This document shows, piece after piece, positions 903 through 64,000 of a DNA stretch of 64,000 nucleotides. The stretch lies in the IMG/VR virus record IMGVR_UViG_3300025018_000093. One strand, written 5' to 3'. This stretch comes from a virus. Lineage: Duplodnaviria; Caudoviricetes. The notes under the pieces are model-generated. The model worked only from the letters and a program-made list of their open reading frames with translations. It was not told the DNA's origin and did no database searches. Position 1 is the stretch's first letter. Each line of letters opens with the position of its first letter. The position numbers and the translations under genes were made by a program.

Positions 903-1264
903 TGGTCTTGTTTCGGTTCTATCTGGAGAGAGCGGGGGATCCGTTCTGGGAAGAAAAGTACAAACGAGGGGAGACGCCCCCAATTCCACGGATGGGGGAG
1001 AAGGTAGCTCTCGGGGATGAGGTGTACATGGTGGTAGAGACCCCCACACATTACTTTGAGCGCACGCATGAGGTCGCTCTGACGTTGAAGCCTTTGCATT
1101 TGGTAGATGAGAGTGGCGAAGTAGTCGATCCTGCGACCCCTGTCTCCCAAGCACTTCCCCCTTCCACAGGCCCACGCACAGCTGAGGGTCTGTGTGCCTA
1201 CTGTGGAGACTCCGAGTGCCCCGGTGGAGAAGAGTGTAACTTCTACGATGGGACTCTGGGATGA
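899..1264 (+). CDS. Hypothetical protein with C-terminal Cys cluster
   Basis: 121 aa, overlaps neighbours at both ends (ATGA); CAYC..C...C near the C-terminus. Confidence 0.6.
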   Translation: MMVLFRFYLERAGDPFWEEKYKRGETPPIPRMGEKVALGDEVYMVVETPTHYFERTHEVALTLKPLHLVDESGEVVDPATPVSQALPPSTGPRTAEGLCAYCGDSECPGGEECNFYDGTLG

Positions 1265-7865: not shown

Positions 7866-8497
7866 TGCATGCCGAAGATGTAAAAGGTAGGATCAAGGAG
7901 AGAGTTGCCCGTATCCACAAGCATGTTCCGATCCTGGAGGTGCTTGCTCGTTACGGGTACACCATCCATGAGGATGCCGAAGGACGAGAGCAGCAGTTCT
8001 CCTGTGACTTGCATGGAGATGGGCAGGACGGGAAGCCCTCCGCAAGAGTGTACCCTGCTTCCGCCTCCTGGTATTGCTTTGGGTGCAGTCTTTCTCGGGA
8101 TGCTATCAAGACAGTGCAGGAGAAAGAGGGCCTTAGCTTCAGCCAGGCATGCTACAAGATTGAAGAGCGATTCAACCTCCCACACCCGGCAAACTGGAAC
8201 ACAGGTGACTGGGACCAGGGGGAACGCTCAGAAGAAAACCCTGGAGACGTCATTAGGATTGACGAGACGACGACTTTCGAGTCCGAGGAAAGACAGACAG
8301 GGAACTTGCTCCTGTACTTGACGCGGGAGCGAATCTTGGAAAGGAAAGTTTGCCTGCTTCTCTGGGAGTTGTACGACCGAGCAGTCTGGAGTGTCCACAA
8401 GGAAGTTTGGTCGGAATCCCGTGGAAAGGAGGCTGTGGCGAAATTGCGAGCAAAGGCGATAGCGTTGGGCGCAAAGGCCCTGCAGGAGGCGTCGTGA
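7865..8497 (+). CDS. Stand-alone primase-type CHC2 zinc-finger protein
   Basis: FSCDLHGDGQDGKPSARVY...WYCFGC...DAIKTVQEKEGLSFSQA matches the DnaG Zn-binding domain; no TOPRIM domain follows. Confidence 0.8.
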   Translation: MHAEDVKGRIKERVARIHKHVPILEVLARYGYTIHEDAEGREQQFSCDLHGDGQDGKPSARVYPASASWYCFGCSLSRDAIKTVQEKEGLSFSQACYKIEERFNLPHPANWNTGDWDQGERSEENPGDVIRIDETTTFESEERQTGNLLLYLTRERILERKVCLLLWELYDRAVWSVHKEVWSESRGKEAVAKLRAKAIALGAKALQEAS

Positions 8498-22239: not shown

Positions 22240-25200
22240 GTGAGAAACAAAAACGCAGCTCGTAAGCAATCACCCTCCCCCACGGCAGCTTCGGAGCTGA
22301 AGCCCATCAAGCCAGAGCGGTTTGTTGATCTTTCGGTATTCTACCTGAGTCTCTCCTCATTTCTCTCCGCGCAGGGCAACAAGCATCCCCATAGCAGAAA
22401 GGGGATGGTCCTTCTTCGAAAAGCGCAATCCCAGATGGAGAGCGGACTGGAGTTGATCGTGCGTCCACTTGTGGATACGCAACGAGTCCCTCAGTTGAAG
22501 TCTCACTTTCAGAAGGCGATGGTGGGGGCCAGTGTGGAGTCCGCCCTCGACAAAGCGCAGTTTCTGTCCGCGTTTTACCGGAAGCTGAGCACTCGCATGG
22601 AGGTTGTCCAGGACGTCTTTTCGGGAAAGTCTCGGACCCCCATCATGCAACTGGTAGACGTGGTGCAGCAGGAAACTCCGGCTGCGATCCTGCACAATTT
22701 GTCCGCCATAGCCCCTGTTTCAGGCATCCAGACCTTCCACCAGTGGGTTGTGGAGGCGGCGAGTATCCTGGGTGCTAGCTTGACTCCGATGGAGTCTATC
22801 GTTGTAGACACAGCCTCGGCAGTTAGCCTTGCTCGACAGATTCGGGATGTGGATGCCAACCTGGCAACCACAAGTCCCGTGTCTGAGGAAGCTGCGAATC
22901 TGCAAGGGGAGAAGCAAAGACTCTCTCGGAAGTTGGAGCAAGTGGTCGAAAACTCGGACAACCCTAACGTGGTTCTCAGCGGAGCTGTCAACGAGATCAA
23001 CAAGAACAAGGAAACAGGGTACCTTACCGAGATTGGGAAGCGTTTGGGGCACACCCCGGATCAAGAAGCTGCAATGATGGTTAGTGGAAAGTCCATCATC
23101 GCTGCCGGAGCGGGCTCTGGTAAGTGCGTTACAGGAGAGACAATCGTTTCTACCCCCAATGGTCCAAAGCGTATCGACGAATGTGCAGCGGTTTCCACTA
23201 CACTTTCCGTGGACGTCTCTCATTTGAGTACGGGGTGGAAAGAGGCACAGTGGCTAGATATGGGGGTGAGCGAGACACTGGAAGTCCAAACCAGGTCAGG
23301 GATTCTTCTGCGTGGTACCCCGGAGCATCCACTTCTTGTTTGGGGTAGCGAAGGGAAAGCTATCTGGAAGACTTTGGCGAGTCTTGAACCCGAAGTAGAT
23401 CATGTGCTTCTTTTGCCAGGTTTTGCGCGAGAGACAGGTACAACGGCCGTAGACCATGAGGAGGCATACTTGTATGGCCTTCTTATGGGAGATGGATGGG
23501 TCGACGTCAAACAAGGTCGTGTATCTTGGTCGCGTGGCGGAGAGTACTTGCCTCCGCATTACTACCGCCTGATGGCTGACATCTTTGAGGTCACTCCCAA
23601 GGCACATCCCAAGCGGGATACCCAAAGTGTGACGCATGAGGTGTGGTCACGGAAACTCGTAACGTTGCTTCAGGAAAAAGGTCTTGCTTTCGCATCTGCT
23701 AGGGACAAGAGCATACCTGCGTATCTAGTCTCGGCAACGGACGCGGAACGTATTCGGTTCCTGCAGGGACTTTTCGATACAGATGGCACGGCTACAGGTG
23801 ACCGCGAATTTGAGTGGCTTTCTGCCTCTGAGACGTTAGCTCGACAAGTACACCAGATGCTTTTAGGTCTTGGTGTAGTGGGTCTCTTGCGACCGAAACA
23901 TGTGAAGGAGTACCCCGACCATACGTACTGGAGAGTTTTTATCTCCGGTGAGCACCTTAGAACTTTCCAGGAAGTTGTGGGTTTCCGCTACGAGTTCAAG
24001 AAGAGTGCCGACTTGCAGGACCTTTGCCAAAAGGATTGCAACCCCAATATCGGAACGTATCCCCATGTTGGAAACCTGCTGAAGGAAGTGCGTGAGACCT
24101 GGAAAAGCCAACAACGCTGGGACGGTAGAAAGCAGTCACTCCTTATGGATGAGCGTTGGGTACAAGTTAAGCATTACCTACTAGGTAGTAGGGAACCTTC
24201 TAGGGAGAAACTCCAATCGCTCATACAGGGGTGTGAGAGTGAAGCCACTACTACTTTAGGTAGCTTGCTTCAGTTCTATCCAGATGCCGTTGTTGCAGTG
24301 AAGCCCTTTGGTAAGCAAGCCGTCTACGACTTCACAGTTCCTGAAACGCATAGCTTTATCGCCAATGGAATCGTATCGCACAACACCCGAGTCTTGGCTT
24401 CAAAGGTTGCCTGGCACATCGAACAGGGGGTTGCTCCCAGTCAAATCATAGCGACCTCCTTCGCACAGAAGTCGGCGGCAGAGCTGTTTGAACGCATTGA
24501 GAAGTACGGGTCACCCATAACGGATGACGTGGCGAAAGAGGGGTACGGGACCACGCACAGCGTTGCTCGTAGCCTCATTAAGCGCTTCGCGCCCAACATC
24601 ACCATGCGACCCTTGATTGAGAAGGGTCTTCAATCAAAGCTCATTCGCCTGGCGATGGAGCAGGTGCAGATGACGCCCCTGCGAGCTGGGGTCGGAGATC
24701 CGGACCCCGAGGAATCCTTCTTTCCTCCTGTTGGGACTGCCGGTCCTGGAGGTCCTGCGGGTGACATTGCGGCGGAGGACCCCGAAACACCCGACATGGG
24801 GACGGAATACGAGAGAGCCGTGCTTCAGGCTCTGCAGTACCATCAGCGGCTGGATGCTCGCATTGGACCCCAGGGTTGGTTGAACTGGACGCTTGGTTTC
24901 CTGAATGACATGCTCGACCAGGATCCCGCCAAGTTCACTCCCAGTATGAAAGCTTCTCTGAATAAGGCCCTGGGCCGTGTCAAATCCGTTTCCTACCGCA
25001 TTGCAGGTGCATCACAGGGTGCCGACAAGAGCTACTTCTACAAGAACCCCGCTAATCAGTGGTTCAACATCGGGCGAAAGCCTTTGATGGACGACATGAG
25101 TAGGCCTATTGGGGCTCGTCGTTTCGGAACAGCGATCAGTGGGTACAAAGCTAATCTTGAGACCCCTGGGAAGCTCTGGGCGGAGACGGGTGGCAACCAC

Positions 25201-28071
25201 AAAGGTGAAGCAGCTCTCTTCACTGCTGTGTATGGAGCCTACGAGTGGTTGAAGAGCAACGATACGCAATTTGGCGGAGGGTATGATCACGATGACACGT
25301 TGATCAATGCCGCCAAGGTTTTGGTCGGAAATCCGAAGGCTTTGGAGTACGCCCTGGCGCGTTGGAAAGTCGTGCTTGTTGACGAGGCGCAGGACTTGAA
25401 CCAGTGCCAGCACGTCATTTTCGGCCTGATCTCCGGGTACTTTGATCCGAATACCCAGAAGCCCTACGAAGATGGAAGATTGCACGCGGACACGTACACC
25501 TTCATTGGGGATGACAAACAATGCGTGGCTGATGACACTCCCGTGCTAACACCCTCTGGGCCAATCCTTGCAAAAAATCTTCGTCCTGGCGACAAGGTTC
25601 TGTCCTATCGGAATGGGGAAGTAGTTCCGCAGACAGTTCGTCACAACATGAGAAGTGATTGGGACCATGGACTTCGGGTGATAACAGAGTCCGGTAAAGA
25701 ACTTCTGATGTCTCCAAATCACAAGCTGTGGGCTACAAACCCGCAGTTGGAGGACGAACAACACATCGTGTATCTGATGTGGCGAGAGGACTTTGGATTT
25801 CGAGTGGGTGTCACCAATAATGGACGGGATGACTCGCATCTCTATCTCTACGGGCAACGCCCTGTCGCTGAAAAAGCAGATAAGTTCTGGGTTCTCGATA
25901 TCACAGAGAACCGAGATTCTGCGCTTCTCCTCGAAGACTGTTATTCTTTGGAGCATCAGATACCCAAAGCAGTCTACCACACGAATCATCGGAATGGTTT
26001 CAAGGGTTCCTACGAGAAGCACATTCAGAAGATTTTTGCTCGCTTCGGCCACAACGGAGTCTGCCTCCTTGAGAAGAAAGAACTATCTTTCGATCTCCCA
26101 CATTGGGTTGCTCGAACCTTCGTGAAAGCGAAAAAGTACACAATCCAAGTGGTCGCACATGGTCCAAAGGGAACGCAAGTCAACCTGGAATGTGGACCGG
26201 AAGTAGACTTGGGAGCTATCTCCTTCAAGAAGCGCCCACAGGATAGAAAACTCATTCGCAAGTGGTTCGGCAACTATCGTGAGGCTCTGCAGTTTGTAGA
26301 CGTGTTGCAGAAACAGACAGGTGCGCTGGTAGCAAAACACTTGTCTTCACCTGCGGGGTCCCTTCGGATGTTGACAGCCTCTGCGTTGTATCCGGGGATG
26401 GAGCTTGTCCTCTATGACGGGGAAGACGTGGAGATGGATGCGATTATCTCCGTGGATCCTGTGGATCCTGCGGAGGGGGTTGTGTTTCTGGACTTGGATG
26501 TAGAGGATGCCTCCAACTTCTTTGCCTGTAACCTGTTGGTTTCCAATAGTATTTACGAATTTCGTGGTGCAACCCCGGAGAAGTTCATCGAAATGTCTGA
26601 CCTGGTGCCAGGAGGTGCTGGGTTCACGACGAAAGTTCTGGAGGTCAACTTCCGTTCCGGCGCCGCGATTGTGGACGCAGCAAACAGGTTGATTGCTCAC
26701 AACACGAAGCAGATCCCGATGGTTTGCCGTGCTGCAGAGCGGAATGGCATGGGGTCTATCAATTACGTAGACGTGGCCACGCATGCCAGCGGGGCTGCTT
26801 TTGCTGCTGAGCGCATTCAGGAGCTGACCAGTGGGGACAACCCCCAATTTGGAGTGCAGGACTTTGGTGTGGCTGTGCGAACGAATGCCGAGGCATTTGC
26901 GTTTGGCGTTGAGATGTTGAAAAGGGGGATGCCCTTCCGTTCTCGAATGAGTTTCTTCGGGGATGACACGACCAAAGCACTGGTGGCGTGGATGCGCATT
27001 GCGGATGCCGCAAGCCTCCGGGAAATCAACCAGGGGGTTCTGGAGGCACATCGCACCCCTCGATTTGGTTTGGACGATGTCTTCGGTTCGCAGCTGCAAA
27101 AGCAAGCTCGGGGGAAAAACTACTATGAGTACCTAGTCAGTGGTGGATGGCGAAACATCTACACAGGAGAGCAGGGCTGGCGAAATGCCAAGCTCGTAAA
27201 ACCCTATGTGGACGCACTCCAGCGGGTACAGGCCCTGAAGTCTACTGCTTCACCCCAGGAGATCCTAGACTTCATCCTGAATATGGAAGGGGCACCGTTA
27301 CCTGGTGGAAAGCCACCGCAATCTACGATTACGTCCTTGATCGAGAAGGTAAAGGGATCTCCTGATGCTATGGACCTCCTCGTGCAGGAGGTTGATGGCG
27401 GGGAAGTCACTGAGGATTCCATGCGTGGGTTGGCCCTCGCCCCCGTGGCTCCGCTAATGGGGTTGCTGGAAGGTTACGAGGACATCGGTCCTGCGATGAA
27501 GTTCATCCAGAAGCTTCAGCATGCTAATGAAAAGAAGCACAAGCAAGACAGCCCAAATGCATCGGACTACGCGGAACCTGCAGTCGTCATCGATACCGTC
27601 CACGGTTGGAAGGGGTTGGAGACGAAGAACCTGTTTATTCCCATGGCAAAGGATGTCTTCCCGCATGTACGCTCGAAGGAGTCCGAGAGGGATATGGCCT
27701 CGGAACGTCGTCTTGCTTACGTGGCCATCACACGCGGGAAGGAATCTGTCACGATCATCGCCCCTGCGGAGAGTCACACTGGAAAGCCAGCCGGTCCGAG
27801 TGAGTTTGTGTTCGAGGCTTGCATTCCCTCGGTGACCAGTCTTGCTGAGGAGAATCCAGCGTTGGCGCAGGAAATGGGAAAAGAGCCCGCAGTGGAAGTT
27901 CCTGCAGAGGAAGCACCTGTAAAGAAGCCTCGTCGCCGCACCCGAAAGCAAAGCTCCCGCACCTACACGGAGGCTGAGTTTGAGGCCTATCTTCGAGGGG
28001 ACACCGCATTCTTTGAGTCGATGGACCTGGAGAAGCAGTGGAACAAGCCGTATGTGGAGGAAGAGGAATGA
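22240..28071 (+). CDS. UvrD/REP-family SF1 helicase with N-terminal extension and two inteins
   Basis: AAGAGSGK|T, VDEAQD, GDDKQ|SIYEFRGA, NFRS, TVHGWKGLE, ERRLAYVAITR. Confidence 0.93.
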   Translation: MRNKNAARKQSPSPTAASELKPIKPERFVDLSVFYLSLSSFLSAQGNKHPHSRKGMVLLRKAQSQMESGLELIVRPLVDTQRVPQLKSHFQKAMVGASVESALDKAQFLSAFYRKLSTRMEVVQDVFSGKSRTPIMQLVDVVQQETPAAILHNLSAIAPVSGIQTFHQWVVEAASILGASLTPMESIVVDTASAVSLARQIRDVDANLATTSPVSEEAANLQGEKQRLSRKLEQVVENSDNPNVVLSGAVNEINKNKETGYLTEIGKRLGHTPDQEAAMMVSGKSIIAAGAGSGKCVTGETIVSTPNGPKRIDECAAVSTTLSVDVSHLSTGWKEAQWLDMGVSETLEVQTRSGILLRGTPEHPLLVWGSEGKAIWKTLASLEPEVDHVLLLPGFARETGTTAVDHEEAYLYGLLMGDGWVDVKQGRVSWSRGGEYLPPHYYRLMADIFEVTPKAHPKRDTQSVTHEVWSRKLVTLLQEKGLAFASARDKSIPAYLVSATDAERIRFLQGLFDTDGTATGDREFEWLSASETLARQVHQMLLGLGVVGLLRPKHVKEYPDHTYWRVFISGEHLRTFQEVVGFRYEFKKSADLQDLCQKDCNPNIGTYPHVGNLLKEVRETWKSQQRWDGRKQSLLMDERWVQVKHYLLGSREPSREKLQSLIQGCESEATTTLGSLLQFYPDAVVAVKPFGKQAVYDFTVPETHSFIANGIVSHNTRVLASKVAWHIEQGVAPSQIIATSFAQKSAAELFERIEKYGSPITDDVAKEGYGTTHSVARSLIKRFAPNITMRPLIEKGLQSKLIRLAMEQVQMTPLRAGVGDPDPEESFFPPVGTAGPGGPAGDIAAEDPETPDMGTEYERAVLQALQYHQRLDARIGPQGWLNWTLGFLNDMLDQDPAKFTPSMKASLNKALGRVKSVSYRIAGASQGADKSYFYKNPANQWFNIGRKPLMDDMSRPIGARRFGTAISGYKANLETPGKLWAETGGNHKGEAALFTAVYGAYEWLKSNDTQFGGGYDHDDTLINAAKVLVGNPKALEYALARWKVVLVDEAQDLNQCQHVIFGLISGYFDPNTQKPYEDGRLHADTYTFIGDDKQCVADDTPVLTPSGPILAKNLRPGDKVLSYRNGEVVPQTVRHNMRSDWDHGLRVITESGKELLMSPNHKLWATNPQLEDEQHIVYLMWREDFGFRVGVTNNGRDDSHLYLYGQRPVAEKADKFWVLDITENRDSALLLEDCYSLEHQIPKAVYHTNHRNGFKGSYEKHIQKIFARFGHNGVCLLEKKELSFDLPHWVARTFVKAKKYTIQVVAHGPKGTQVNLECGPEVDLGAISFKKRPQDRKLIRKWFGNYREALQFVDVLQKQTGALVAKHLSSPAGSLRMLTASALYPGMELVLYDGEDVEMDAIISVDPVDPAEGVVFLDLDVEDASNFFACNLLVSNSIYEFRGATPEKFIEMSDLVPGGAGFTTKVLEVNFRSGAAIVDAANRLIAHNTKQIPMVCRAAERNGMGSINYVDVATHASGAAFAAERIQELTSGDNPQFGVQDFGVAVRTNAEAFAFGVEMLKRGMPFRSRMSFFGDDTTKALVAWMRIADAASLREINQGVLEAHRTPRFGLDDVFGSQLQKQARGKNYYEYLVSGGWRNIYTGEQGWRNAKLVKPYVDALQRVQALKSTASPQEILDFILNMEGAPLPGGKPPQSTITSLIEKVKGSPDAMDLLVQEVDGGEVTEDSMRGLALAPVAPLMGLLEGYEDIGPAMKFIQKLQHANEKKHKQDSPNASDYAEPAVVIDTVHGWKGLETKNLFIPMAKDVFPHVRSKESERDMASERRLAYVAITRGKESVTIIAPAESHTGKPAGPSEFVFEACIPSVTSLAEENPALAQEMGKEPAVEVPAEEAPVKKPRRRTRKQSSRTYTEAEFEAYLRGDTAFFESMDLEKQWNKPYVEEEE
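23125..24384 (+). mobile_element. Intein 1 of UvrD (420 aa, LAGLIDADG) in Walker A
   Basis: CVTGETIV start, TPEHP block B, YGLLMGDG and GLFDTDG, ends VYDFTVPETHSFIANGIVSHN followed by Thr+1. Confidence 0.95.
25522..26547 (+). mobile_element. Intein 2 of UvrD (342 aa) in motif III, with a non-LAGLIDADG insert
   Basis: CVADDTPV start, SPNHKL block B, ends FLDLDVEDASNFFACNLLVSN followed by Ser+1; insert IVYLMWREDFGFRVGVT. Confidence 0.9.
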
Positions 28072-49982: not shown

Positions 49983-50372
49983 ATGAACGATAACACAAAT
50001 GAACTACAAGTGGACTTGCAGACACCCGAGACGATGCTGGACTTGATACAGCGTCGCTCCGCAGCTATTGCGTCTTTTCGCAAACAAGGGAAGAAGGGCA
50101 TCATGGGTTGGCTGCAAAACAGCCCCTGTGGGGGGATCGTAAGTGAGGGGATCATGGAGTGCTTTCGAGCTTCTATCGAGAGCGCAGACGGAACCTGGAA
50201 GGTTCACTACAACCGCCCGCACACCAATGCACCTGTGGCTCCTCCACCCAAGGGTTCCATGGATTTCATCCCCGTGTCCGCTGCTTGCTTGACAGGTGTG
50301 CTGATTCTCCATGTCGATGGACAGGTGTACCCTGGACCCAATTTCCCAAGACTGCCCGAAGCCAGAAGATAA
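49983..50372 (+). CDS. Hypothetical protein
   Basis: SD GAGGAG before ATG 49983. Confidence 0.6.
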   Translation: MNDNTNELQVDLQTPETMLDLIQRRSAAIASFRKQGKKGIMGWLQNSPCGGIVSEGIMECFRASIESADGTWKVHYNRPHTNAPVAPPPKGSMDFIPVSAACLTGVLILHVDGQVYPGPNFPRLPEARR

Positions 50373-50431
50373 CCTTCCTGGCCCTCTCCGCACCAGGCTC
50401 CCCTCACTACACTTCAGAGGTCTCGCGCACG

Positions 50432-53400
50432 ATGATGGATAGCAAGCAGCTGACGATAAATCCCTATCGGTTCTATGACCTGGTACAAGTCCAGCAGAGA
50501 ATGACCCCTGGGATGTCTGAGTTCCTGGATGACTTCGGTGGCAAACTGGCGGAGAAGCGGGTACAACTCGAAGCCGACTACGACGATATCAACGAGTTGT
50601 ATGATCGTTTCGTTCAGGAATCCGAGAAGGGTGTGCGGGAGCGCCTTCAAAGCGATTGGGCCACCTCGGAGGAGCACGGCAAAGCTCAGGACCCTTACCG
50701 AAACACCCTGGCGGGCGAGAGCTTCCTTCATGTCATCCTTACGCTGTCCAAGTTATCTCGGGACATGCATCTGGAACTGCAAACCCTTGTGGAGCTTCTT
50801 CGCCCAACACCCCTTATTCTGCAAGAGGGGGCATCCTTGCGGGACCCTTGGTCCTTCAAGGCGAGTGACTTGCAGCAGCTATCCTATGAGATACAGATCA
50901 ATTCGGAGTCCGTCACGCAATTCACTTCAGGTGTCTTGGGAGTGCGCGATGGACGCAAGAGCATCCTCAAGTATTTGGACCAGACGATTCGAGTTCTGGA
51001 CAATTTCTACACCGCACTGGTGCGGAGACATATGACAGAAGGGGTGCCAATTCTCGTGGACCCCCTCCTGACCGACGTTGCCCTCTGCATCTACGAAAAT
51101 GTGGACAGTCATGGGGAAATCGAGAACGGGTCCGATCCCAACAAGGTGTCCGCGTACTCGGTCCGAAAAGCTAAGCTCCTGATTGAGGCGACCAGTGTGG
51201 GGAGAATTGGTACGTTCCTCCGAGAGCCGGCTTCTTTTCTCGACTATGTGCGCAACACCTTTCGGTCGTTGTGGGCAGACATGGGGGTCCTGGAGGAGCA
51301 CTTCGACAAAACCATCGAGGATGTACATCGCATCGTGAATCCCTATGCGATCTATGCCCCGCTTCTCGATTCCAATCTGGCGTCTGGCTTGCGTGTCCTG
51401 GACACTATGGACCCTCGCAGTGTCACCTATCGAGATCCTGGAAAGTTGTTGTCCCCCGAGGAGAGAAAGGCGCACAACTTTTGGGTGGACACTCTCCAGG
51501 GTATCGTAGAGAAACTCTCCAATGAGACACCCTCCTCGGAACTGGTGCAGTACATCCTTCAACGCAAGTTCGAATTGCGAGGGTGGCAGCAGGACGAGAA
51601 CAGTTTCTACGTGTGCCGCATCGGTTCCGGCAATCAATTTCGGGGAGTGGCCCCAGGGGCGCTGGAGGTGGTCCCCGGAGCCCGTCCCACGGTCAAGCTC
51701 GACGAGATCATTGGGGCCGGATTCGACGACGTGCGCGCCTTCGTGGAGCAAGTGGAGTCTGCCGCCAAGTGGCATGACCTCTTTGTAGCCACCTCCCCGA
51801 GTCGCACCGCCGACAAGTCGAATGTGCTACTCATAGGTCCTCAAGGATGCGGGAAATGTGTCACCGGAGATACTCGGGTCTTTACTTCCCGTGGGCTTTG
51901 TCGCATTAAGGACTTACATCCTGGGGAGATCGACTCCGATGGGTATGCTCCCCTGGAAATGGCAGTTCGTTCTTTTACCCACAGAGGGGTCTCCTCACAT
52001 TTCTACGACTCCGGTGTCCAGCCCACTTTCAAGGTAGAGACGAAGCATGGCTACCAAGTTGAGGGGACGGACAAGCATCAAGTCATTGTGGCCACGGCAG
52101 GGGGTCCTGCCTGGAAACGCTTGGATGCTATCTGCGAAGAGGACCTGGTGGGGATCATTCGCTACCCGGACATAGGGGTAGCGGATCCTCAGGAAGAGTG
52201 GTTCCCTATGGGGCCGGATGATGTGGACGAGGAGGACGCATATCTTCTAGGGTACTGGATCGGAGACGGTTCCTATTCTCAAAAAACCACCCCTCGGTTC
52301 TCTGTTGGGGCGCAGGACATGGACTACTTCAAAGAGTTTGTACTACCTGCGCTGGAAAAGAGGTGGGGTGTCCCACATGTCTATCAGGACAAGCGTGGGC
52401 TCTACGACGTCCAGGTCTTCCACATGCACTCCGGTGCAACAGCTCTAGTAGCAGAATGCGGATCTGGGGCTTCCCACAAAAGAGTCCCGGAAACGATCCT
52501 GCGTTCCAGTAAGAGAGCCTGGCGGGGGTTCTTGTCGGGACTGTTCGATGCGGATGGATCGGCATATCAAAGTCGTGTGGAATGGGCGTCCAACAGTGAG
52601 GACCTCATCCGCACTGTGCAAACGATGCTGACAGCTTTCGGGATTGTGTCCGCCATCACTTCCCGGACCCAGCCCGGTCCGGGGGCGAAAGAGTATGTTT
52701 CCTGGCGAATGTTTCTCTATGGGGAGAATGCTCGGAGATTCTTCCACCAAGTGGGATTCCGGCTGAAGCGGAAGATGGCCAAGCTAGCGCCACTTTTGTC
52801 TCAGAAACGCAACGATAACTGGGATTGCATCCCTGTCAGTCGAGAGCTTTGGAAAGCTCTCAAGAGACAAGCTGGTAAACTCCCCCGAGCAATACACAAA
52901 GCGCTGGACCCTTACATGAGAGGGCACTACCCATCACGGCACACCTTGAGTGCACTACTGGCGTTGGTGGGGGTCACCGAGGGGGTGGCTTTTGAGGCAA
53001 TCCAGCAGCTGGCAGACCCCAAGTGGTTCTGGGATAGAGTCCAGGCGGCAGGAGCTACGGGGGCGTCCAAGCAAGTCTATGACTTGGTTGTCCCTGAGGA
53101 GCAGAGCTTTGCAGCCAATGGTTTCATGAACCATAATACGGAGATTCTTCGCGGGGTTGGAGCAGACAAGAGGTCGATCAGCATCTTCGCGCAGGGGTCC
53201 GACTTCAACACTTGCTGGCTCGGGGAGGCAAGCAAGAATCCCAAGCGCCTGTTTCAGGCCGGCTTGCAGCTCCAGAAGAAGGCCAACAAGCATGTGCACT
53301 TTCTCATCGATGAGATTGACGCCATCTTGAACAATGACCGTCAGAACGCAGGGTACATCAACCTCACCCTGGAGTTCCAAATCCTGATGGACGGTGTGGT

Positions 53401-53950
53401 GCAGTACCCTCATCTCTCGGTGTGGGGAACGACCAACAGCCCCAACCGAATCCCGATGCCGATGATTCGTCGATTCTCGAAGGTGGCCATCGTAGGTGAG
53501 CTGGACCAAAGTGACCGTATCCGACTACTCAAGCACTTCACCAGCTTCCTCCCTTGCGCGGAAATCACAGATGAGTCCTGGAAACTTCTCGCAGACAAGC
53601 TGGAGGGAGCCACTGGGGATGTGATCCGAAAGGTCGTGGATACGGTGTGGCGGGAGACGATGACCCGATTCGTGATGCAGGACCCCGGGAATGCGGAAAC
53701 TCTGGTGCGGTGGCTCAACCGCAATGCGAAGTTTGACATTGGAAGTTTCGAGGGAAAAGAGCGGCGAGGGTTCCAAGAGATCCTGCGAAAGCATTTCGGA
53801 ATCACCGCAGAACAGTTGGACGTCTCCGTCGAGAAAGCCCTCGACAACGTGGCGATCCTACACGAGATTGAGACGGCGAAGATGGTTTACCGGGATGCTC
53901 AGCTCTTCATGGCTTCCGTGACGGAAGACCGTGGTGGGTGCCCCGTATGA
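50432..53950 (+). CDS. AAA+ ATPase with large N-terminal domain and one intein
   Basis: LLIGPQGCGK|T, FLIDEIDA (Walker B), TTNSP, MIRRF (Arg finger). Confidence 0.9.
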   Translation: MMDSKQLTINPYRFYDLVQVQQRMTPGMSEFLDDFGGKLAEKRVQLEADYDDINELYDRFVQESEKGVRERLQSDWATSEEHGKAQDPYRNTLAGESFLHVILTLSKLSRDMHLELQTLVELLRPTPLILQEGASLRDPWSFKASDLQQLSYEIQINSESVTQFTSGVLGVRDGRKSILKYLDQTIRVLDNFYTALVRRHMTEGVPILVDPLLTDVALCIYENVDSHGEIENGSDPNKVSAYSVRKAKLLIEATSVGRIGTFLREPASFLDYVRNTFRSLWADMGVLEEHFDKTIEDVHRIVNPYAIYAPLLDSNLASGLRVLDTMDPRSVTYRDPGKLLSPEERKAHNFWVDTLQGIVEKLSNETPSSELVQYILQRKFELRGWQQDENSFYVCRIGSGNQFRGVAPGALEVVPGARPTVKLDEIIGAGFDDVRAFVEQVESAAKWHDLFVATSPSRTADKSNVLLIGPQGCGKCVTGDTRVFTSRGLCRIKDLHPGEIDSDGYAPLEMAVRSFTHRGVSSHFYDSGVQPTFKVETKHGYQVEGTDKHQVIVATAGGPAWKRLDAICEEDLVGIIRYPDIGVADPQEEWFPMGPDDVDEEDAYLLGYWIGDGSYSQKTTPRFSVGAQDMDYFKEFVLPALEKRWGVPHVYQDKRGLYDVQVFHMHSGATALVAECGSGASHKRVPETILRSSKRAWRGFLSGLFDADGSAYQSRVEWASNSEDLIRTVQTMLTAFGIVSAITSRTQPGPGAKEYVSWRMFLYGENARRFFHQVGFRLKRKMAKLAPLLSQKRNDNWDCIPVSRELWKALKRQAGKLPRAIHKALDPYMRGHYPSRHTLSALLALVGVTEGVAFEAIQQLADPKWFWDRVQAAGATGASKQVYDLVVPEEQSFAANGFMNHNTEILRGVGADKRSISIFAQGSDFNTCWLGEASKNPKRLFQAGLQLQKKANKHVHFLIDEIDAILNNDRQNAGYINLTLEFQILMDGVVQYPHLSVWGTTNSPNRIPMPMIRRFSKVAIVGELDQSDRIRLLKHFTSFLPCAEITDESWKLLADKLEGATGDVIRKVVDTVWRETMTRFVMQDPGNAETLVRWLNRNAKFDIGSFEGKERRGFQEILRKHFGITAEQLDVSVEKALDNVAILHEIETAKMVYRDAQLFMASVTEDRGGCPV
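51857..53137 (+). mobile_element. Intein (427 aa, LAGLIDADG) in AAA+ Walker A
   Basis: CVTGDTRV start, LGYWIGDG and GLFDADG, ends VYDLVVPEEQSFAANGFMNHN followed by Thr+1. Confidence 0.95.
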
Positions 53951-57076: not shown

Positions 57077-59212
57077 CTACCACTGTTGAATGACTTGTTC
57101 TGTCAGCTCTCTGGAGGTCAGCTCCGGGGAGTTCAGAAGAAGCCTCCGCGCTAATGGTACAATTCGACCCCGTTCTTTAGCCTCCAGGCCCAGTCTCTCG
57201 ATGATTTGCATGTTATCCACCGGGGGCTTCTGGAGCTTCTCCAGATAGGCATTGGCTTCGTCCTCTGCCATGGGAGCAAGGAGGCTGCGAACCTGCTTTC
57301 TTTGCTGTGCCGTGAGAAAGGATAGTGGGGTTCGCACAGGCATACCCCGGTCTAGGATGTCCAAGAGAAGTGACTTGTATCGGGGACTCGACAATTCCCG
57401 CGAAAGATACGCGGAGAAGCCTGGGTTCTCCCCAATCATTTCGGAAATAACGTCCAAGATCCCTAGCTCGTCCATCAAGTCCAACATCTTCGAGGCATTC
57501 GATTGCATGAGGATGTTGTGCACCAGGATGCTCGCGATGGCCTCGTAAGGCATTCGCTTCATCTTGGGAGCGTGCTTCCGCAGCGCAGCCTCGGTCTTGG
57601 GTGTCATTTGGAACCCGTAGCGACCGATGAATTTGATGGCCCGCAGGATGCGACTGGGATCATCCGAGAAGGTTTGATTGGGATCGGAGGGGCATTGCAT
57701 ACGACGCTCTGTCAAGTCCCGGAGTCCGCAACCTGTCAAGTCGATAATCTCCGCCTTCTCTGGCCCGTCCACCAAGTCGAATAGCCGCCACATCAAGCTG
57801 TTCCACGTAAATTCTCTGCGACGCACATCATCTTCAATGGTTGCCTGGGAGACTTCCGTGGGTTTGTATCCCTTTCCACCTTCGCCTTTGCCGTAGCTTT
57901 CTGTCCGAGCGTTGGCCACCTCGATGACTTCACCTCGTAGGTTCTCCCCTTCTAGCTCCCAGTCCCCTTTCACGCTCAGGATGGCCACCCCATACTGATT
58001 GGTTGTCACAGTTGTGGGTGTGGGTATCTTGTGGGACACCAGCTTCGCAAAGTCTCCGGAGTCCATACCTGCTCGCACGCTGTCTATCACCACGTCAATG
58101 TCCTTGATTGGCTTGCGGAGAATGAAGTCTCGCACCGCTCCCCCGACTACATAGACATGCTTGGCGATCCTGGCCTCCCGTGCGATTGCGGAGAGAAACT
58201 TCATGAGAGCGATGGACCGCTTGTGTTCCTTGGATTCCAGGTACCGGGTAGCCACTCGCACAGAAGAGGGTCCGAGTTGAAAGTAGAACCGCTGCCCGTT
58301 TGAGATCCCAACGGTGCCGGACAGGACAGGACCATTGACTTTGCGAAAGCCCCGGGCTAGCAGTTTGTTTGCTTCTTTGGGGCTCGCTCCTTCCGTGGCT
58401 ACCGTGACGTGCGGAACGTCGTTGTCCACAGGAAGTCCTCCTGGGTCCACAGCGACGACTTGTAGGCTTTCATCTGAGGCGATCCCTGTGACCTTGACTT
58501 GGGCCTTGGCACCAATGGGAAGCGCTTCTAGTTCCTCCGGCGTGAGGCGGAACTTCATTGTCATGTGGTTAGCCCAGGCCGTGGGGAGAACACCTCCGAT
58601 ATCCTGCACCCACCACTGCAGCAATGTCTTAGGATTGTCGAGAACCAGACCTACGTACACTGCTTGCTTCACATCCGGGAGTTGCCCAAGGTCTTGCGGT
58701 CCACAGTTTACCTCTGCGGGTTTGGACCTCACAGGGTGCGCGCGAACCTCGTAGCCAGCTCGCTGAAGCATCTGGGCGTAGCTCTGTAGCAAGTCGCGTT
58801 GGTCATCCCACAATTCTACCTCAGACACGAACGGGAACTTGCTCAGAGTGTCACGAAGCACCTTTCGTTTGAAGGCTCCCGTGGATTCCAACCCCCCTCT
58901 AGGGTTCAAGTGGACCTCGTCGAAATCGAGATTGGCACCTCGCAGAATTTCGGGTATCCGCCATCGAAAGATTCTGTCGCTGCGCCCGGTGCAGAGAATG
59001 GCATAGGTGTTTGGGTCTGCGATGGCTCTTCGAGCTTCCTGAAGTACGGAATTGACCCACCACTCGGATCCCGGTCGAAGGGGAACGCAGGGTGGGCTCA
59101 AAGACAGATCATCCACATACCAACCGCGCTCATACCAGGGGGGAGGAGCGGGCGAGCGAAACAGAGTACCGTCGAAGTCGAACATTGCTAGCGTGGGCAT
59201 TACCACCTCCAT
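57077..59212 (-). CDS. Three-domain RNA end-repair protein: HAD phosphatase + 2H phosphoesterase + tRNA nucleotidyltransferase (CCA/poly(A) polymerase family)
   Basis: FDFDGTLF..LCTGR..LWDD (HAD); NHMT and PHVT (2H); VYVVGGAVRD...KDID, DDVRRREFT.N, FSDDPSRILRAIKF (class II NTase). Confidence 0.88.
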   Translation of the reverse strand: MEVVMPTLAMFDFDGTLFRSPAPPPWYERGWYVDDLSLSPPCVPLRPGSEWWVNSVLQEARRAIADPNTYAILCTGRSDRIFRWRIPEILRGANLDFDEVHLNPRGGLESTGAFKRKVLRDTLSKFPFVSEVELWDDQRDLLQSYAQMLQRAGYEVRAHPVRSKPAEVNCGPQDLGQLPDVKQAVYVGLVLDNPKTLLQWWVQDIGGVLPTAWANHMTMKFRLTPEELEALPIGAKAQVKVTGIASDESLQVVAVDPGGLPVDNDVPHVTVATEGASPKEANKLLARGFRKVNGPVLSGTVGISNGQRFYFQLGPSSVRVATRYLESKEHKRSIALMKFLSAIAREARIAKHVYVVGGAVRDFILRKPIKDIDVVIDSVRAGMDSGDFAKLVSHKIPTPTTVTTNQYGVAILSVKGDWELEGENLRGEVIEVANARTESYGKGEGGKGYKPTEVSQATIEDDVRRREFTWNSLMWRLFDLVDGPEKAEIIDLTGCGLRDLTERRMQCPSDPNQTFSDDPSRILRAIKFIGRYGFQMTPKTEAALRKHAPKMKRMPYEAIASILVHNILMQSNASKMLDLMDELGILDVISEMIGENPGFSAYLSRELSSPRYKSLLLDILDRGMPVRTPLSFLTAQQRKQVRSLLAPMAEDEANAYLEKLQKPPVDNMQIIERLGLEAKERGRIVPLARRLLLNSPELTSRELTEQVIQQW

Positions 59213-61132: not shown

Positions 61133-61438
61133 TTGGGGGTGTACCTCAACCACAGGAGGGACCATGAGGACGCGCATCAAGTTGTACTGGACACCGTAGA
61201 GGGAACCTTCAACGTCGAAGTGAGGGTCTGCGGGGAATATCACCCTGCAACTTGGGGGTGGAATGGGGTTTTTCCCGAGGAGTACCCCGCAGTCAAAGTG
61301 CTCTCTATCCAGGGAGAGCACGAGAATCTTTACACGTTAGAGGAACTCGCCACTCTGCTGGAGAGCACACCCGAAAAGGTGGAAGACCTCATCATGGAGT
61401 TGCTACCAGACCTTCTTGAAGAGGATGCTCCGTTCTGA
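61133..61438 (+). CDS. Acidic hypothetical protein
   Basis: 101 aa ORF; start uncertain. Confidence 0.55.
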   Translation: MGVYLNHRRDHEDAHQVVLDTVEGTFNVEVRVCGEYHPATWGWNGVFPEEYPAVKVLSIQGEHENLYTLEELATLLESTPEKVEDLIMELLPDLLEEDAPF

Positions 61439-61597
61439 TTCCTGGAGTACCTGCCGTCCTAGGCAGTATGCAAAAAGATTCTGATCCCAGCACCAAAGTG
61501 GAGTTGGGTTAGTAAGCCCTTCGAGTGCGTAGGACTCTAGGGCAGTATGCAAAAAAAGATTCTGATCCCAGCACCAAAGTGGAGTTGGGTCAATAAG

Positions 61598-61666
61598 ACG
61601 CTCAAGCCCTGAGCGGAGGTCCCTCGGGATCTCGTGTGGAATTGGGTGTCTGTCAGGGCAGGCACC
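61598..61666 (+). ncRNA. Circularly permuted pistol-like ribozyme, copy 1
   Basis: ACGC-UCAA-G-CCCUGA-GCG, 7-bp P3, GU at 61634-61635, GUGG, linker, P1 GGUGUCUG/CAGGCACC with UCAGGG loop. Confidence 0.75.
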
Positions 61667-61708
61667 GCAGGGAGGCAATCAAGCCTCACACAACCAAGGA
61701 GAATTGCT

Positions 61709-62239
61709 ATGCCGAACGAACCTTATGTGCATCCTACTCCCATCGCCAATCTCGGGGACGCGAACTTTCTGAATTACGGGGGGCGCCTGGTGTTTCCCGG
61801 TGTCTCAGAAGGGGATGAATTCTACATGGAGGCCATCTTGGAGCCCCCGGAGGACTGCGAGGAAGACGAGGAAACGTGGACGGTCTACCGCTTCGACCTG
61901 GAACGTTTCCAGGTCGTGGAAAAGGGCAACCACCTTTACCTCGTCCCAGAGAAATGGGAGGCGCCATGGCCGCACGCTCTCTCGCGGTATGATGAGTGGT
62001 TTCATCAGGACTTGAAAGCTGTCGCGGAGTCCCAGGGCACCACAGTCCAAGAGCTTCGAGCAGCTTTCTGCTCGGAGGATCCTGTGAAGCGAGCCTGGGC
62101 CTGGTGTGCTGTGAGTGACCACCACGGATTCCACGAGCTTTATCCCTTGAGGCTGTCTCAGCACGAGGCCCACAGTCGCTACGGACTCCTGGAGAATTGC
62201 TACTGTGAGTCCTGTGTGCCGTGCCAGGACAACGACTAG
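61709..62239 (+). CDS. Acidic hypothetical protein (cassette gene)
   Basis: SD AAGGAG, ATG 61709; stop abuts the next ribozyme. Confidence 0.75.
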   Translation: MPNEPYVHPTPIANLGDANFLNYGGRLVFPGVSEGDEFYMEAILEPPEDCEEDEETWTVYRFDLERFQVVEKGNHLYLVPEKWEAPWPHALSRYDEWFHQDLKAVAESQGTTVQELRAAFCSEDPVKRAWAWCAVSDHHGFHELYPLRLSQHEAHSRYGLLENCYCESCVPCQDND

Positions 62240-62312
62240 CCGCTCAAGCCCTGAGCGTCCCACCCTGAAGGAGGTGGGGGTGCGGAACGATTTTCAGGCT
62301 GTCAGGGCAGCC
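62240..62312 (+). ncRNA. Circularly permuted pistol-like ribozyme, copy 2
   Basis: CCGC-UCAA-G-CCCUGA-GCG, P3 UCCCACC/GGUGGGG, GU at 62280-62281, GCGG, P1 GGCUG/CAGCC with UCAGGG loop, then A tract. Confidence 0.82.
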
Positions 62313-62396
62313 CGAAAAAAGATTCTGATCCCAGCACCGGAGTGTGGTTGCTGGGGTAGGAGGCAATCTCGCCTCCCGTAACCAATGGAGACAACC

Positions 62397-62747
62397 ATGA
62401 ACTCTGACCAACATCTGCGAACGGTTACCCTCCAGGGGTACGAGCTGACCACCTGGGACACCTACAGGACCGGCGCCTTCAGGGAGTCGATCCTGGGGTA
62501 TCGATTCGCTGCTCCCAGGGGCGAAGTCCTCTTCACGGGGGAGGACTTCTGCTGCTCGCCGCTGCTCGACATCGACAGCGATGAGGCGGTGCGAAGCCTC
62601 CTGGGATTCCTCTGCCTCCGTCCTGGGGACACGGACTCGGAGTACTTCGAGAACTACACGCCAGCACAGCTCGCCTTCGCAGAAGGGGATGCGGAGCAGC
62701 TCTCAATGTACGCCATGGAGGAGGACCCGTTCCCCTTCGACGAGTAG
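62397..62747 (+). CDS. Acidic hypothetical protein (cassette gene)
   Basis: SD GGAG before ATG 62397 (alternative start 62385). Confidence 0.72.
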   Translation: MNSDQHLRTVTLQGYELTTWDTYRTGAFRESILGYRFAAPRGEVLFTGEDFCCSPLLDIDSDEAVRSLLGFLCLRPGDTDSEYFENYTPAQLAFAEGDAEQLSMYAMEEDPFPFDE

Positions 62748-62751
62748 CTAG

Positions 62752-62825
62752 CCGCTCAGGCCCTGAGCGCTCCACCCCTCCTGGGTGGGGGTCGGAACAA
62801 TCCGAGTACCTGTCAGGGCAGGTAC
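62752..62825 (+). ncRNA. Circularly permuted pistol-like ribozyme, copy 3 (one G missing in P2 3' strand)
   Basis: CCGC-UCAG-G-CCCUGA-GCG, 8-bp P3, GU at 62791-62792, CGG, P1 GUACCUG/CAGGUAC with UCAGGG loop. Confidence 0.7.
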
Positions 62826-62833
62826 AATCTGGA

Positions 62834-62857
62834 GTGCCTTCCGGGCACGTCTTTTTT
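62834..62857 (+). terminator. Possible intrinsic terminator
   Basis: GTGCC-TTCCG-GGCAC stem followed by GTC and T6. Confidence 0.5.
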
Positions 62858-63001
62858 GTGGCATAGGATGAGAGGAAGGCACAGCGGGACGCACACTCCT
62901 GCTGTGCAATACTTTGATTTTATTCCATACTTGACGGCAAGATGGTCAAGTTCTCGCAGAGCACCTGCGTTACGGCGGGTGTCCCTCAAAAGGAGAAGAG
63001 G

Positions 63002-63682
63002 ATGCATTTACTCGTATCCGTGCTGCTGTCAATTGTTGCCTACAGCAGTGAAGCCCCGCAAGAGACCTTGGAAGCAGAGATGGAAAGGCAGCTTTTTGTG
63101 CTGCACATGAACCTGGCTGTAGGTCTGCCAGCCGAATATGGCGCCGCATTGTATGATGCAGCTGCAGACAATCAGGTGGACAGATATGAGTTGGCGGCTG
63201 TGCTCATTGCAGAGCATGCCGGACCCGACTACGATTTCTCGCTGGGGAGTGCTAGAAAATACAGGACGCTGAACTTTGATCCCCTGTCTGAGGGCACCTC
63301 GAAAGAGCGAGGTCTGTTTCAAGTCAAGCCCTCGTGGGCAAAGAAAGCTGGGGTGAGCAAGGACGACTTGTTTGACCCAATAGTCAACATCCAAGTCGGG
63401 GCTTTCATCGTCCAGACAAACCAAGCAAAGCATGCCAAAGCATGCGCCTCCTCAAAGTACGTATGGCATTCGTGGTATGCCCACTACACATGCCATCGTC
63501 GGGAGCGGAACAAGCTCCAGGGGTTCTGCCGGTTCAAGCAGTTGCGCTACGAGAAGATATTGCATTCGTTGACAGAAGCCACACCTGATTTCAAAGCCTT
63601 GACGTCTGCATACAAGCTCAATTTGAAGAGGACGCTCAAGCGTGCGCAGAAAGCGTCTGCGGCAATCCCAGAAGAGGAGTAG
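63002..63682 (+). CDS. Lytic transglycosylase (SLT-like) with signal peptide
   Basis: SD AAGGAG; hydrophobic N-terminus; LAAVLIAE (catalytic Glu), RGLFQV, LFDPIVNIQVGA. Confidence 0.75.
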   Translation: MHLLVSVLLSIVAYSSEAPQETLEAEMERQLFVLHMNLAVGLPAEYGAALYDAAADNQVDRYELAAVLIAEHAGPDYDFSLGSARKYRTLNFDPLSEGTSKERGLFQVKPSWAKKAGVSKDDLFDPIVNIQVGAFIVQTNQAKHAKACASSKYVWHSWYAHYTCHRRERNKLQGFCRFKQLRYEKILHSLTEATPDFKALTSAYKLNLKRTLKRAQKASAAIPEEE

Positions 63683-63761
63683 TCCTCCTGTCAGGGCAGC
63701 ACGAAAAAAGATTCTGATCCCAGCACCAAAGTGGAGTTGGGTCAGTAGAGGGGAAGACAAG

Positions 63762-63835
63762 CCGCTCAGGCCCTGAGCGTCCCTGGCCGAAAGGCCAGGG
63801 GGTGTGGAACGAAGTCGTGCTGTCAGGGCAGCACG
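63762..63835 (+). ncRNA. Circularly permuted pistol-like ribozyme, copy 4
   Basis: CCGC-UCAG-G-CCCUGA-GCG, 9-bp P3 with GAAA tetraloop, GU at 63802-63803, GUGG, P1 CGUGCUG/CAGCACG with UCAGGG loop, then AAAAUAA. Confidence 0.85.
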
Positions 63836-63889
63836 AAAATAAATTCTGATCCCAGCACCAAAGTGGAGTTGGGTCTGGAGGTCTAAGCC

Positions 63890-64000
63890 ATGAGTTGGTG
63901 GATTAATGACAGCGAGGACGGATGGCGGTACACCGACCCCGGAAGAAGATGGGCTCCGAAGGAGCCGACGGCGAAGGAAGTCGCGGCCAATAACGCGGTG
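63890..64000 (+). CDS. Start of next cassette gene (truncated by window edge)
   Basis: SD GGAGGT, ATG 63890, open to the end of the window. Confidence 0.6.
   Translation, partial: MSWWINDSEDGWRYTDPGRRWAPKEPTAKEVAANNAV

Follow-up and report, generated by a model that had tools for sequence, protein, structure and literature searches.

Four intergenic elements, packed into 2.2 kb on the + strand of a 64,000-nt stretch of phage DNA (the window), raise the question of whether a pistol ribozyme can occur in nature with P1 on the 3' side of its cleavage site. The canonical-order pistol, reported by Weinberg in 2015, is a self-cleaving ribozyme; it runs from P1 through a linker to P2a, the junction, P3 and P2b, an order that we did not find here. 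A preliminary description read the elements as natural, circularly permuted pistols. Judging from sequence comparison, we give a probability of about 0.8 to the reading that all four are active circularly permuted pistol ribozymes, which would cut phage polycistronic RNA just past stop codons.

Our own indexing placed the four elements and their predicted G/U junctions (Table 1) exactly where they had first been described. Each runs 5' to 3' from P2a through U-C-A-R-G, CCCUGA, GCG, P3, the G/U junction and P2b to a linker of 5-11 nt and a P1 hairpin with the loop UCAGGG, as previously outlined. No two copies share the stems of P3 (7-9 bp) or P1 (5-8 bp), yet all of these stems pair, and the one GAAA loop on P3 belongs to copy 4. 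Within the 64 kb, GCCCTGAGCG occurs exactly four times and CTGTCAGGGCAG exactly five times, always inside the four-element region, and none of 100 shuffles contained as many as six matches to CTGTCAGGGCAG at one mismatch or fewer. P2 is less uniform than had been proposed. The pairing of CCGC with GYGG, assigned to all four, holds for copies 2 and 4, the only window copies with a full 4-bp P2; copy 1, the weakest of the four, has ACGC/GUGG (3 bp including one G-U), and copy 3 is limited to CCG/CGG (3 bp) because its P2b is one base short. In copy 3 an alternative hairpin can also form, in which the linker UCCGA pairs with U+1 and P2b (UCGGA). Copies 2 and 3 begin 1 and 5 nt past the stops of the preceding ORFs, so that, as the preliminary description stated, only coding sequence lies upstream of them.

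Table 1. Positions of the permuted elements and neighbouring features in the window (R1, covariance model built for the permuted order)
Feature	Position	Strand	Remarks
Copy 1, whole	61598-61666	+	R1 41.1 bits, E 2e-8; no Rfam partial match
Copy 1, 5' part	P2a 61598-61601 (ACGC); J UCAA 61602-05, A32 equivalent 61605; G33 61606; pseudoknot strand 61607-12	+	
Copy 1, middle	G40-C41-G42 61613-15; P3 61616-33; predicted scissile G61634/U61635; P2b 61636-39 (GUGG)	+	
Copy 1, 3' part	linker 61640-44; P1 61645-52 and 61659-66; loop UCAGGG 61653-58	+	
Copy 2, whole	62240-62312	+	Rfam Pistol 23.7 bits, model positions 24-68; R1 97 bits
Copy 2, 5' part	P2a 62240-43 (CCGC); J UCAA 62244-47; G33 62248; pseudoknot strand 62249-54	+	P2a directly 3' of TAG stop 62237-39
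Copy 2, middle	GCG 62255-57; P3 62258-79; predicted junction G62280/U62281; P2b 62282-85 (GCGG, 4 bp)	+	
Copy 2, 3' part	linker 62286-96 (11 nt); P1 62297-01 and 62308-12; loop 62302-07	+	
Copy 3, whole	62752-62825	+	Rfam Pistol 22.3 bits; R1 53 bits
Copy 3, 5' part	P2a 62752-54 (CCG) and unpaired C 62755; J UCAG 62756-59; G33 62760; pseudoknot strand 62761-66	+	
Copy 3, middle	GCG 62767-69; P3 62770-90; predicted junction G62791/U62792; P2b 62793-95 (CGG)	+	
Copy 3, 3' part	linker 62796-805; P1 62806-12 and 62819-25; loop 62813-18	+	
Copy 4, whole	63762-63836	+	Rfam Pistol 25.2 bits; R1 104 bits
Copy 4, 5' part	P2a 63762-65; J UCAG 63766-69; G33 63770; pseudoknot strand 63771-76	+	
Copy 4, middle	GCG 63777-79; P3 63780-801 (9 bp, GAAA loop); predicted junction G63802/U63803; P2b 63804-07 (GUGG, 4 bp)	+	
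Copy 4, 3' part	linker 63808-14; P1 63815-22 and 63829-36; loop 63823-28	+	
Leader motif, copy 1 of 5	61472-61512	+	A-run, GAUUCUGAUCC, imperfect hairpin, UAG(A/U)A
Leader motif, copies 2-5	start at 61558, 62321, 63710, 63842		
Candidate decayed ribozyme remnant	61500-61546	+	AAGCCCU..GAG.GCG-like stretch, then CUCUAGGGCAG; P3 and P2b absent
ORF, 176 aa	61709-62239	+	between copies 1 and 2
ORF, 116 aa	62397-62747	+	between copies 2 and 3
Terminator-like hairpin and U-run	62834-62857	+	9 nt 3' of copy 3
ORF, 226 aa, weak SLT transglycosylase domain	63002-63682	+	PF01464, E 4.5e-5; between copies 3 and 4
Degenerate P1-like hairpin CUG-UCAGGG-CAG	63688-63699	+	3-bp stem only; just 3' of SLT-like ORF stop

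The Rfam Pistol model (RF02679; 68 positions, gathering cut-off 34.5 bits) gave no match at gathering score in the window, in line with the expectation that standard covariance models would miss the permuted order. Below the cut-off, copies 2-4 matched it at 22-25 bits over positions 22-68 only, and relatives of the elements gathered elsewhere reached 33.8 bits. The model aligns P2a through P2b (from positions 20-25 to 67-68), and the best of these partial scores lie just below the cut-off despite the absence of a third of the model, which bears out the proposed pistol-like core. Canonical pistols (RF02679; env25 structure 5K7C; PMC4604425) share with the elements P2, P3, a 6-bp pseudoknot in which the P1 loop pairs with the strand joining P2 to P3, a 2-nt junction holding the scissile bond between P3 and a P2b that pairs with P2a, a phage intergenic location, and the equivalents of U29, R32, G33, G40, C41, G42 and U+1, all present in the four window copies. 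Position 30 is C in all window copies and U in the pistol consensus. The elements also differ from canonical pistols in having P1 3' of P2b rather than 5' of P2a, in missing the P1-to-P2a linker, in scoring below the Rfam cut-off, and in their host context, since they lie in GC-rich phage contigs from aquifers and other environments, not in Firmicutes.

Relatives were gathered by a metagenome scan and with R1, as the preliminary description had suggested, and together with the window 13 other loci yielded 34 distinct sequences of the same order. All 34 have P1 on the 3' side of P2b, after a linker of 5-12 nt, and no copy has a usable P1 within 120 nt upstream; the placement of P1 downstream of the cleavage site, first noted in the window, is thus general among them. 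One locus, L130, carries at least six permuted copies in 8 kb. Another, L143 (element at 6744-6818, - strand), is an unrelated IMG/VR contig whose P2, P3, P1 and pseudoknot sequences all differ from those of the window, the pseudoknot being of the env25 type (CCCUAA/UUAGGG); it scored 33.3 bits with the Pistol model. Eight of the 19 metagenome-scan loci lacked a P1 stem and were rejected as chance matches (L122, L124, L132, L134, L135, L136, L138 and L140), as were the species-genome matches L141 and L142. Pattern searches of IMG/VR returned more than 116 chance matches with a loose pattern, the structure being present in none, no match with three clade-specific or consensus-based patterns, and only the chance palindromes L144 and L145 with two further ones. 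A protein search of IMG/VR with the SLT-like ORF found no relatives, and no DNA similar to the window was found among phage records. The sequencing runs that contain the locus are aquifer-metagenome DNA only, with no RNA run listed.

In the aligned sequences, standard pairs fill 96.2% of 837 pair cells, compared with 73.3% after shuffling and 34-48% in the slid controls, and compensatory changes occur at 22 of 26 pairs, although these counts overstate the independent events because many of the relatives are paralogous copies from related phages. P3 is 94% paired and all 9 of its pairs covary; P2 is 90% paired and all 4 pairs covary (CCGC/GCGG, ACGC/GCGU, GCCA/UGGC, GCCA/UGGU, CCCG/CGGG, GCCG/CGGC and CCUG/CGGG), with only 3 bp in 16 of the 34 sequences and poor pairing in four relatives. 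A strain variant of copy 4 (L119) has a different P1, fully compensated. The model, which was used to align the nested helices, left out the pseudoknot; the latter nevertheless pairs in 33 of the 33 sequences, and two of its positions covary (C-G to U-A in 5 sequences, G-C to A-U in 1). It reads CUCUGA/UCAGAG in 5 aligned sequences, and with the env25-type pair in L143 the compensatory exchange of U-A and C-G noted in the preliminary description is upheld. While the stems diverge, the equivalents of U29, purine 32, G33, G40, C41, G42 and U+1 are near-invariant over the 34 sequences; their roles in pistol catalysis have been described (PMC6154101, PMC6795133). The junction is GU in all window copies and GU, CU or AU among relatives at a constant length of 2 nt, and in pistols this GU was termed 'modestly conserved' and its length strictly conserved (Harris 2015, PMC4604425).

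Predicted folding complicates this picture. For all four copies, the fold of lowest predicted energy contains a local hairpin, CGCUCAG/CUGAGCG, that displaces P2 and the pseudoknot; by a rough sum the active fold lies within ~3 kcal/mol of it, a gap small enough for misfolding to be possible. Transcription of the permuted RNA produces the pseudoknot strand ahead of its partner. Dominance of the competing hairpin would suit a pistol-derived structured RNA that does not cleave, or cleaves too slowly, and instead binds protein or stabilises the phage transcript as an intergenic element, as would the short P2 in half the copies, the C at position 30 and the company of a second conserved motif, the leader. 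We nevertheless consider such an RNA rather unlikely, since catalytic residues held near-invariant over diverged sequences whose helices change freely form a pattern expected only if the chemistry is under selection. Moreover, the competing hairpin has no compensatory changes and is broken in 9-13 sequences at each of three positions, whereas P2 and the pseudoknot, with which it is mutually exclusive, do covary.

The same contrast speaks against three independent hairpins (CGCUCAG/CUGAGCG, P3 and P1) forming a REP- or terminator-type repeat with a coincidental likeness to pistol. Such a repeat would match the minimum-energy fold, and the elements are indeed repeated and apparently shuffled between intergenic sites; recognition of the core by the Pistol model and recurrence of the order in L143, with every helix and the pseudoknot changed, make it very improbable. 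Least credible of all is that these are canonical pistols interrupted by long inserts, with each core drawing on the P1 of the preceding unit across a gene or in trans. P1-like hairpins do occur upstream of later array copies, and a degenerate one sits 62 nt upstream of copy 4; this hairpin is a duplicated 3' half of P1 plus leader unit. But the upstream hairpins are hundreds to thousands of nt off while the downstream one is always within 5-12 nt, and no partner exists upstream of copy 1 or L143. In four tandem cases (L130, L137, L127 and L128), the preceding UCAGAG loop would give a C-A mismatch with CCCUGA, which fits its own downstream UCAGGG loop.

The leader motif matches 5 times in the window, against 0.07 expected by chance, and 29 instances are found in the window and its relatives, often directly 3' of P1. 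A sigma-70 promoter was rejected as its identity for lack of a consensus match, and it matched no Rfam family. From its letters and alignment, the stretch at 61500-61546 is probably a decayed ribozyme remnant. The ORFs between copies 1 and 2 and between copies 2 and 3 gave no match in protein family searches. The source contig ends ~14 nt beyond the window.

If the elements are active permuted pistols, the canonical 3' end (P2b) would be joined to the canonical 5' end (P1) through the 5-12 nt linker, usually AA-initiated, and the canonical P1-to-P2a linker would be open, so that the RNA begins at P2a, right after the stop codon. We know of no test of a broken P1-P2 linker in canonical pistols. 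The fold would be that of the canonical ribozyme, with the UCAGGG loop and CCCUGA forming a 6-bp pseudoknot stacked between P1 and P3, and with P2 closing the three-way junction. If catalysis proceeds as described for pistol, the equivalents of G40 (61613, 62255, 62767 and 63777) would activate the 2'-OH on the G of the junction; the leaving group would be protonated by a water bound to Mg2+ and held by G33 and purine 32, and the chain would break between the G and U of each junction in Table 1. Cleavage would leave the P3 hairpin and a 2',3'-cyclic phosphate at the 3' terminus of the upstream product, and the downstream product would open with a U bearing a 5'-OH, followed by P2b, the linker and P1. 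In ~40% of sequences, U+1, P2b and the linker are predicted to be able to form a 5'-terminal hairpin on that product. Polycistronic phage transcripts would in this way be divided into mRNAs the size of single genes, each new end carrying a hairpin; this is the role suggested for ribozyme-flanked phage genes.

An engineered circularly permuted pistol (Mustafina et al. 2021, ACS Synth Biol; summarised in PMC10353319) is active and shares the P2b-linker-P1 join, which is thus sterically allowed. Its break lies in the P3 loop and its P1-P2 linker is intact, whereas in the natural form P3 is closed and the P1-P2 linker open. Hammerhead types I-III and twister P1, P3 and P5 likewise present one catalytic fold in varied 5'-to-3' orders with a different helix open (PMC10085705; PMC6765202), although they are other ribozyme classes, and the pistol break falls in a single-stranded linker rather than at a helix end. 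The only self-cleaving ribozymes that Eckert et al. 2023 (PMC10085705) list as circularly permuted in nature are hammerhead and twister, and in the literature to late 2026 we found permuted pistols only as engineered constructs, in agreement with the preliminary description. Ribozyme-flanked genes are established in prophages and phages, with a proposed role in processing long transcripts to gene-length mRNAs (Perreault et al. 2011, PMC3088659). They too have several self-cleaving motifs punctuating a run of small same-strand genes; those motifs are hammerheads or canonical pistols and twisters, whereas here all units are permuted pistols, often with the leader motif.

Taken together, we think it somewhat probable that pistol is a third naturally permuted self-cleaving class after hammerhead and twister, with a permuted form that is catalytically active and occurs in phage lineages unrelated to one another; the fold would then not need the P1-P2 linker, and P1 would stay with the downstream mRNA. 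The topology, which would leave P1 and often a 5'-terminal hairpin downstream, may be under selection as a means of capping the following cistron at its 5' end. If the reading is true, the pistol fold tolerates an open P1-P2 linker, and ribozymes are undercounted by covariance-model annotation, as all copies here fall below the Rfam cut-off. With most of the ribozyme 5' of the predicted cut and P1 3' of it, the elements would offer a natural scaffold for ribozyme-based switches, and their dense arrays, four in 2.2 kb here and at least six in 8 kb in L130, would be a clean system for ribozyme punctuation of phage mRNAs.

The four elements lie where the preliminary description had placed them, all intergenic and with one shared 5'→3' order of parts. 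The 5' half of each copy consists of P2a, a 4-nt junction (UCAA or UCAG), G, CCCUGA, GCG and a GC-rich P3 hairpin, and the 3' half of GU, P2b, a linker of 5-11 nt and a P1 hairpin with a 6-nt loop, UCAGGG, that complements the CCCUGA strand in all four. Independent indexing reproduced the G/U junctions at 61634/5, 62280/1, 62791/2 and 63802/3. A 4-bp P2 holds for copies 2 and 4 only; the same claim fails for copy 1 (ACGC/GUGG) and copy 3 (CCG/CGG), with 3 bp each. The window contains exactly four occurrences of GCCCTGAGCG and exactly five of CTGTCAGGGCAG, none of them outside 61.6-63.8 kb; about 0.75 matches to CTGTCAGGGCAG at ≤1 mismatch are expected by chance.

The window is the terminal part of a 130-kb metagenome contig (ENA) with phage-like gene content, including a family A DNA polymerase and DnaB, SNF2 and UvrD helicases, of which several contain inteins. 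The region 61400-64000 falls within a series of small + strand ORFs; copy 2 starts 1 nt and copy 3 starts 5 nt past a stop codon, and a stop codon lies at or beside P2a in most relatives too. The replication module is unusually intein-rich: inteins with LAGLIDADG endonuclease domains interrupt an AAA ATPase and the three helicases, with two intein matches in UvrD. A further protein of the phage (41339-43057, -) combines a PARP catalytic domain with a weak WGR domain.

Candidate ribozymes and neighbouring features in the window
Feature	Coordinates	Strand	Remark
Copies 1-4	61598-61666, 62240-62312, 62752-62825, 63762-63836	+	candidate permuted pistols
Leader motif	61472-61512, 61553-61595, 62316-62360, 63705-63750, 63837-63880	+	conserved intergenic motif
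Core-like stretch without P3	61500-61546	+	probable decayed ribozyme piece, from sequence reading
P1 with 3-bp stem only	63688-63699	+	decayed P1-like piece
ORF	61709-62239	+	between copies 1 and 2
ORF	62397-62747	+	between copies 2 and 3
ORF	63002-63682	+	SLT-like protein, between copies 3 and 4
ORF	start 63890	+	in small-ORF run
Intein-split genes	1261-4035, 5052-7865, 22240-28071, 50159-53950	+	SNF2, DnaB, UvrD helicases, AAA ATPase

As anticipated for a permuted order, no family was called when the whole 64 kb was scanned with Rfam at curated thresholds. At permissive thresholds, the top three matches in the region were all Pistol (RF02679; 22-25 bits against a cut-off of 34.5 bits), spanning model positions 22-68 of 68, that is, P2a through P2b, with the P1 part unmatched; cores of relatives reached up to 33.8 bits over that same stretch of the model. 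Purine 32, G33 and the GCG (equivalents of G40, C41 and G42), claimed as kept, were all found, as was an equivalent of U29, which pairs with U+1; structural and biochemical studies link all of these residues to catalysis (PMC6154101, PMC6795133). The scissile junction is 2 nt long; its length is strictly conserved in pistols, with GU only 'modestly conserved' (Harris et al. 2015, PMC4604425).

Relatives were sought in JGI metagenome contigs with a pattern requiring the permuted order. Among 19 loci, 11 carried genuine copies, complete with stems P1 and P3; the rest were rejected as chance matches. A covariance model built from five copies (R1), an approach already proposed, recovered further permuted copies beyond reach of the pattern. 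The final set, L143 (below) included, comprises 34 distinct permuted sequences, one interrupted by a contig end. An independent example lies in an unrelated IMG/VR contig (L143, 6744-6818, -); it scores 33.3 bits against the core of the Rfam model and 55 bits against R1. It has P2 CGGA/UCCG, junction UUAA, an env25-type pseudoknot (CCCUAA with loop UUAGGG), a UUCG P3 loop, a GU scissile junction, a 7-nt linker and a 7-bp P1 with a Shine-Dalgarno sequence and ATG directly 3'.

In A7, a model-guided alignment in which nested helices are favoured by being aligned to the model (equally perfect stems are visible in the raw sequences) and the pseudoknot was entered by hand, 96.2% of 837 pair cells were standard pairs, compared with 73.3% in shuffles and 34-48% when the 3' partner was slid by 1-3 columns. 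Both sides changed in 22 of 26 pairs, and P2 occurs in seven different complementary combinations. The pseudoknot, absent from the model, is paired in 33/33 sequences, and its compensatory change was borne out at two covarying positions, one of which has U-A instead of C-G in five sequences and the other A-U instead of G-C in L143. Locus L119, from another strain of the window phage, has a different and fully compensated P1 in copy 4. The SLT-like protein is the same in both strains, but L119 1055-1134 and window 63760-63838 differ in the linker and throughout the P1 stem. This variant P1 is also found in L137, another related locus, which suggests cassette exchange between copies.

P1 does lie 3' of the cleavage site. 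Each of 34 parsed copies has the downstream hairpin at a distance of 5-12 nt, and in none did the 120 nt upstream yield a hairpin that matches; the 3-bp remnant before copy 4 is the nearest to an exception. A core might instead use the P1 of the preceding unit, split or in trans. At L130, L137, L127 and L128, a unit with a UCAGAG loop precedes the CCCUGA core; pairing would leave a C-A mismatch, and each of these cores has its own UCAGGG loop downstream. Given these loop mismatches, the lack of an upstream P1 and the constant nearby downstream hairpin, the split or trans reading is excluded. A different competitor is the local hairpin CGCUCAG/CUGAGCG, predicted in the minimum-energy fold of all window copies, which ties up P2a, the junction, part of the pseudoknot strand and G40. 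Because relatives show no compensatory change and three positions are broken in 9-13 sequences, this hairpin is, judged by sequence comparison, not under selection. It could act as a kinetic trap, since by a rough sum the predicted active fold lies within ~3 kcal/mol of it. Linker bases (CCGA) are able to pair with U+1 and P2b in 13/32 sequences, including copy 3. As a lead only, such pairing would compete with P2 before cleavage, and afterwards would give a 3' product with a hairpin from its first base, beside P1.

The leader motif (29 instances across the window and relatives) comprises an A-run and GAUUCUGAUCC, then an imperfect hairpin with stronger conservation in its 3' strand (GUGG..UU..GGG) than in its 5' strand, and lastly UAGAG. 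Often directly 3' of P1, it is also found without a ribozyme; it gave no Rfam and no sigma-70 match and may serve as a promoter in the phage, as a leader or as an RNA bound by protein. The decayed pieces suggest that ribozyme-plus-leader cassettes were duplicated and have decayed. In L130 (minus strand), a (GA)n run of ~30 nt sits just past the leader motif 3' of copy 7933-8011, between two ribozymes separated by only ~80 nt of gene-free sequence. An intrinsic-terminator-like hairpin and U-run (62834-62857, +) begin 9 nt past copy 3, so that cleavage by copy 3 would detach this hairpin from the transcript that holds the ribozyme.

Conservation and covariation support the conclusion that copies 1-4 are homologous to pistol, permuted and under selection for structure; we put the probability that they are catalytic at about 80%. 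The case is weakest for copies 1 and 3. In an engineered permuted pistol, a P2b-P1 join was compatible with activity (PMC10353319); P3 was opened in that construct, whereas it is a closed hairpin in copies 1-4. The conserved residues point to standard pistol chemistry, by which the upstream mRNA product would end in the P3 hairpin with a cyclic phosphate and the downstream product would begin with 5'-OH-U, followed by P2b, linker and P1. At 2.4 kb from the candidate ribozymes, which would generate cyclic-phosphate ends, a 711-aa protein (57077-59212, -) carries an RNA-repair HAD domain, a CCA-adding or poly(A) polymerase head and a weak 2',3'-cyclic phosphodiesterase match.

Hammerhead and twister have been described as the only self-cleaving ribozymes that are naturally circularly permuted (Eckert et al. 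2023, PMC10085705). The suspected novelty of a natural permuted pistol is supported by full-text literature searches to late 2026, mostly outside subscription journals: only the engineered form was found. In phages, genes flanked by ribozymes have been described before, and processing of transcripts is the role proposed for them (PMC3088659).
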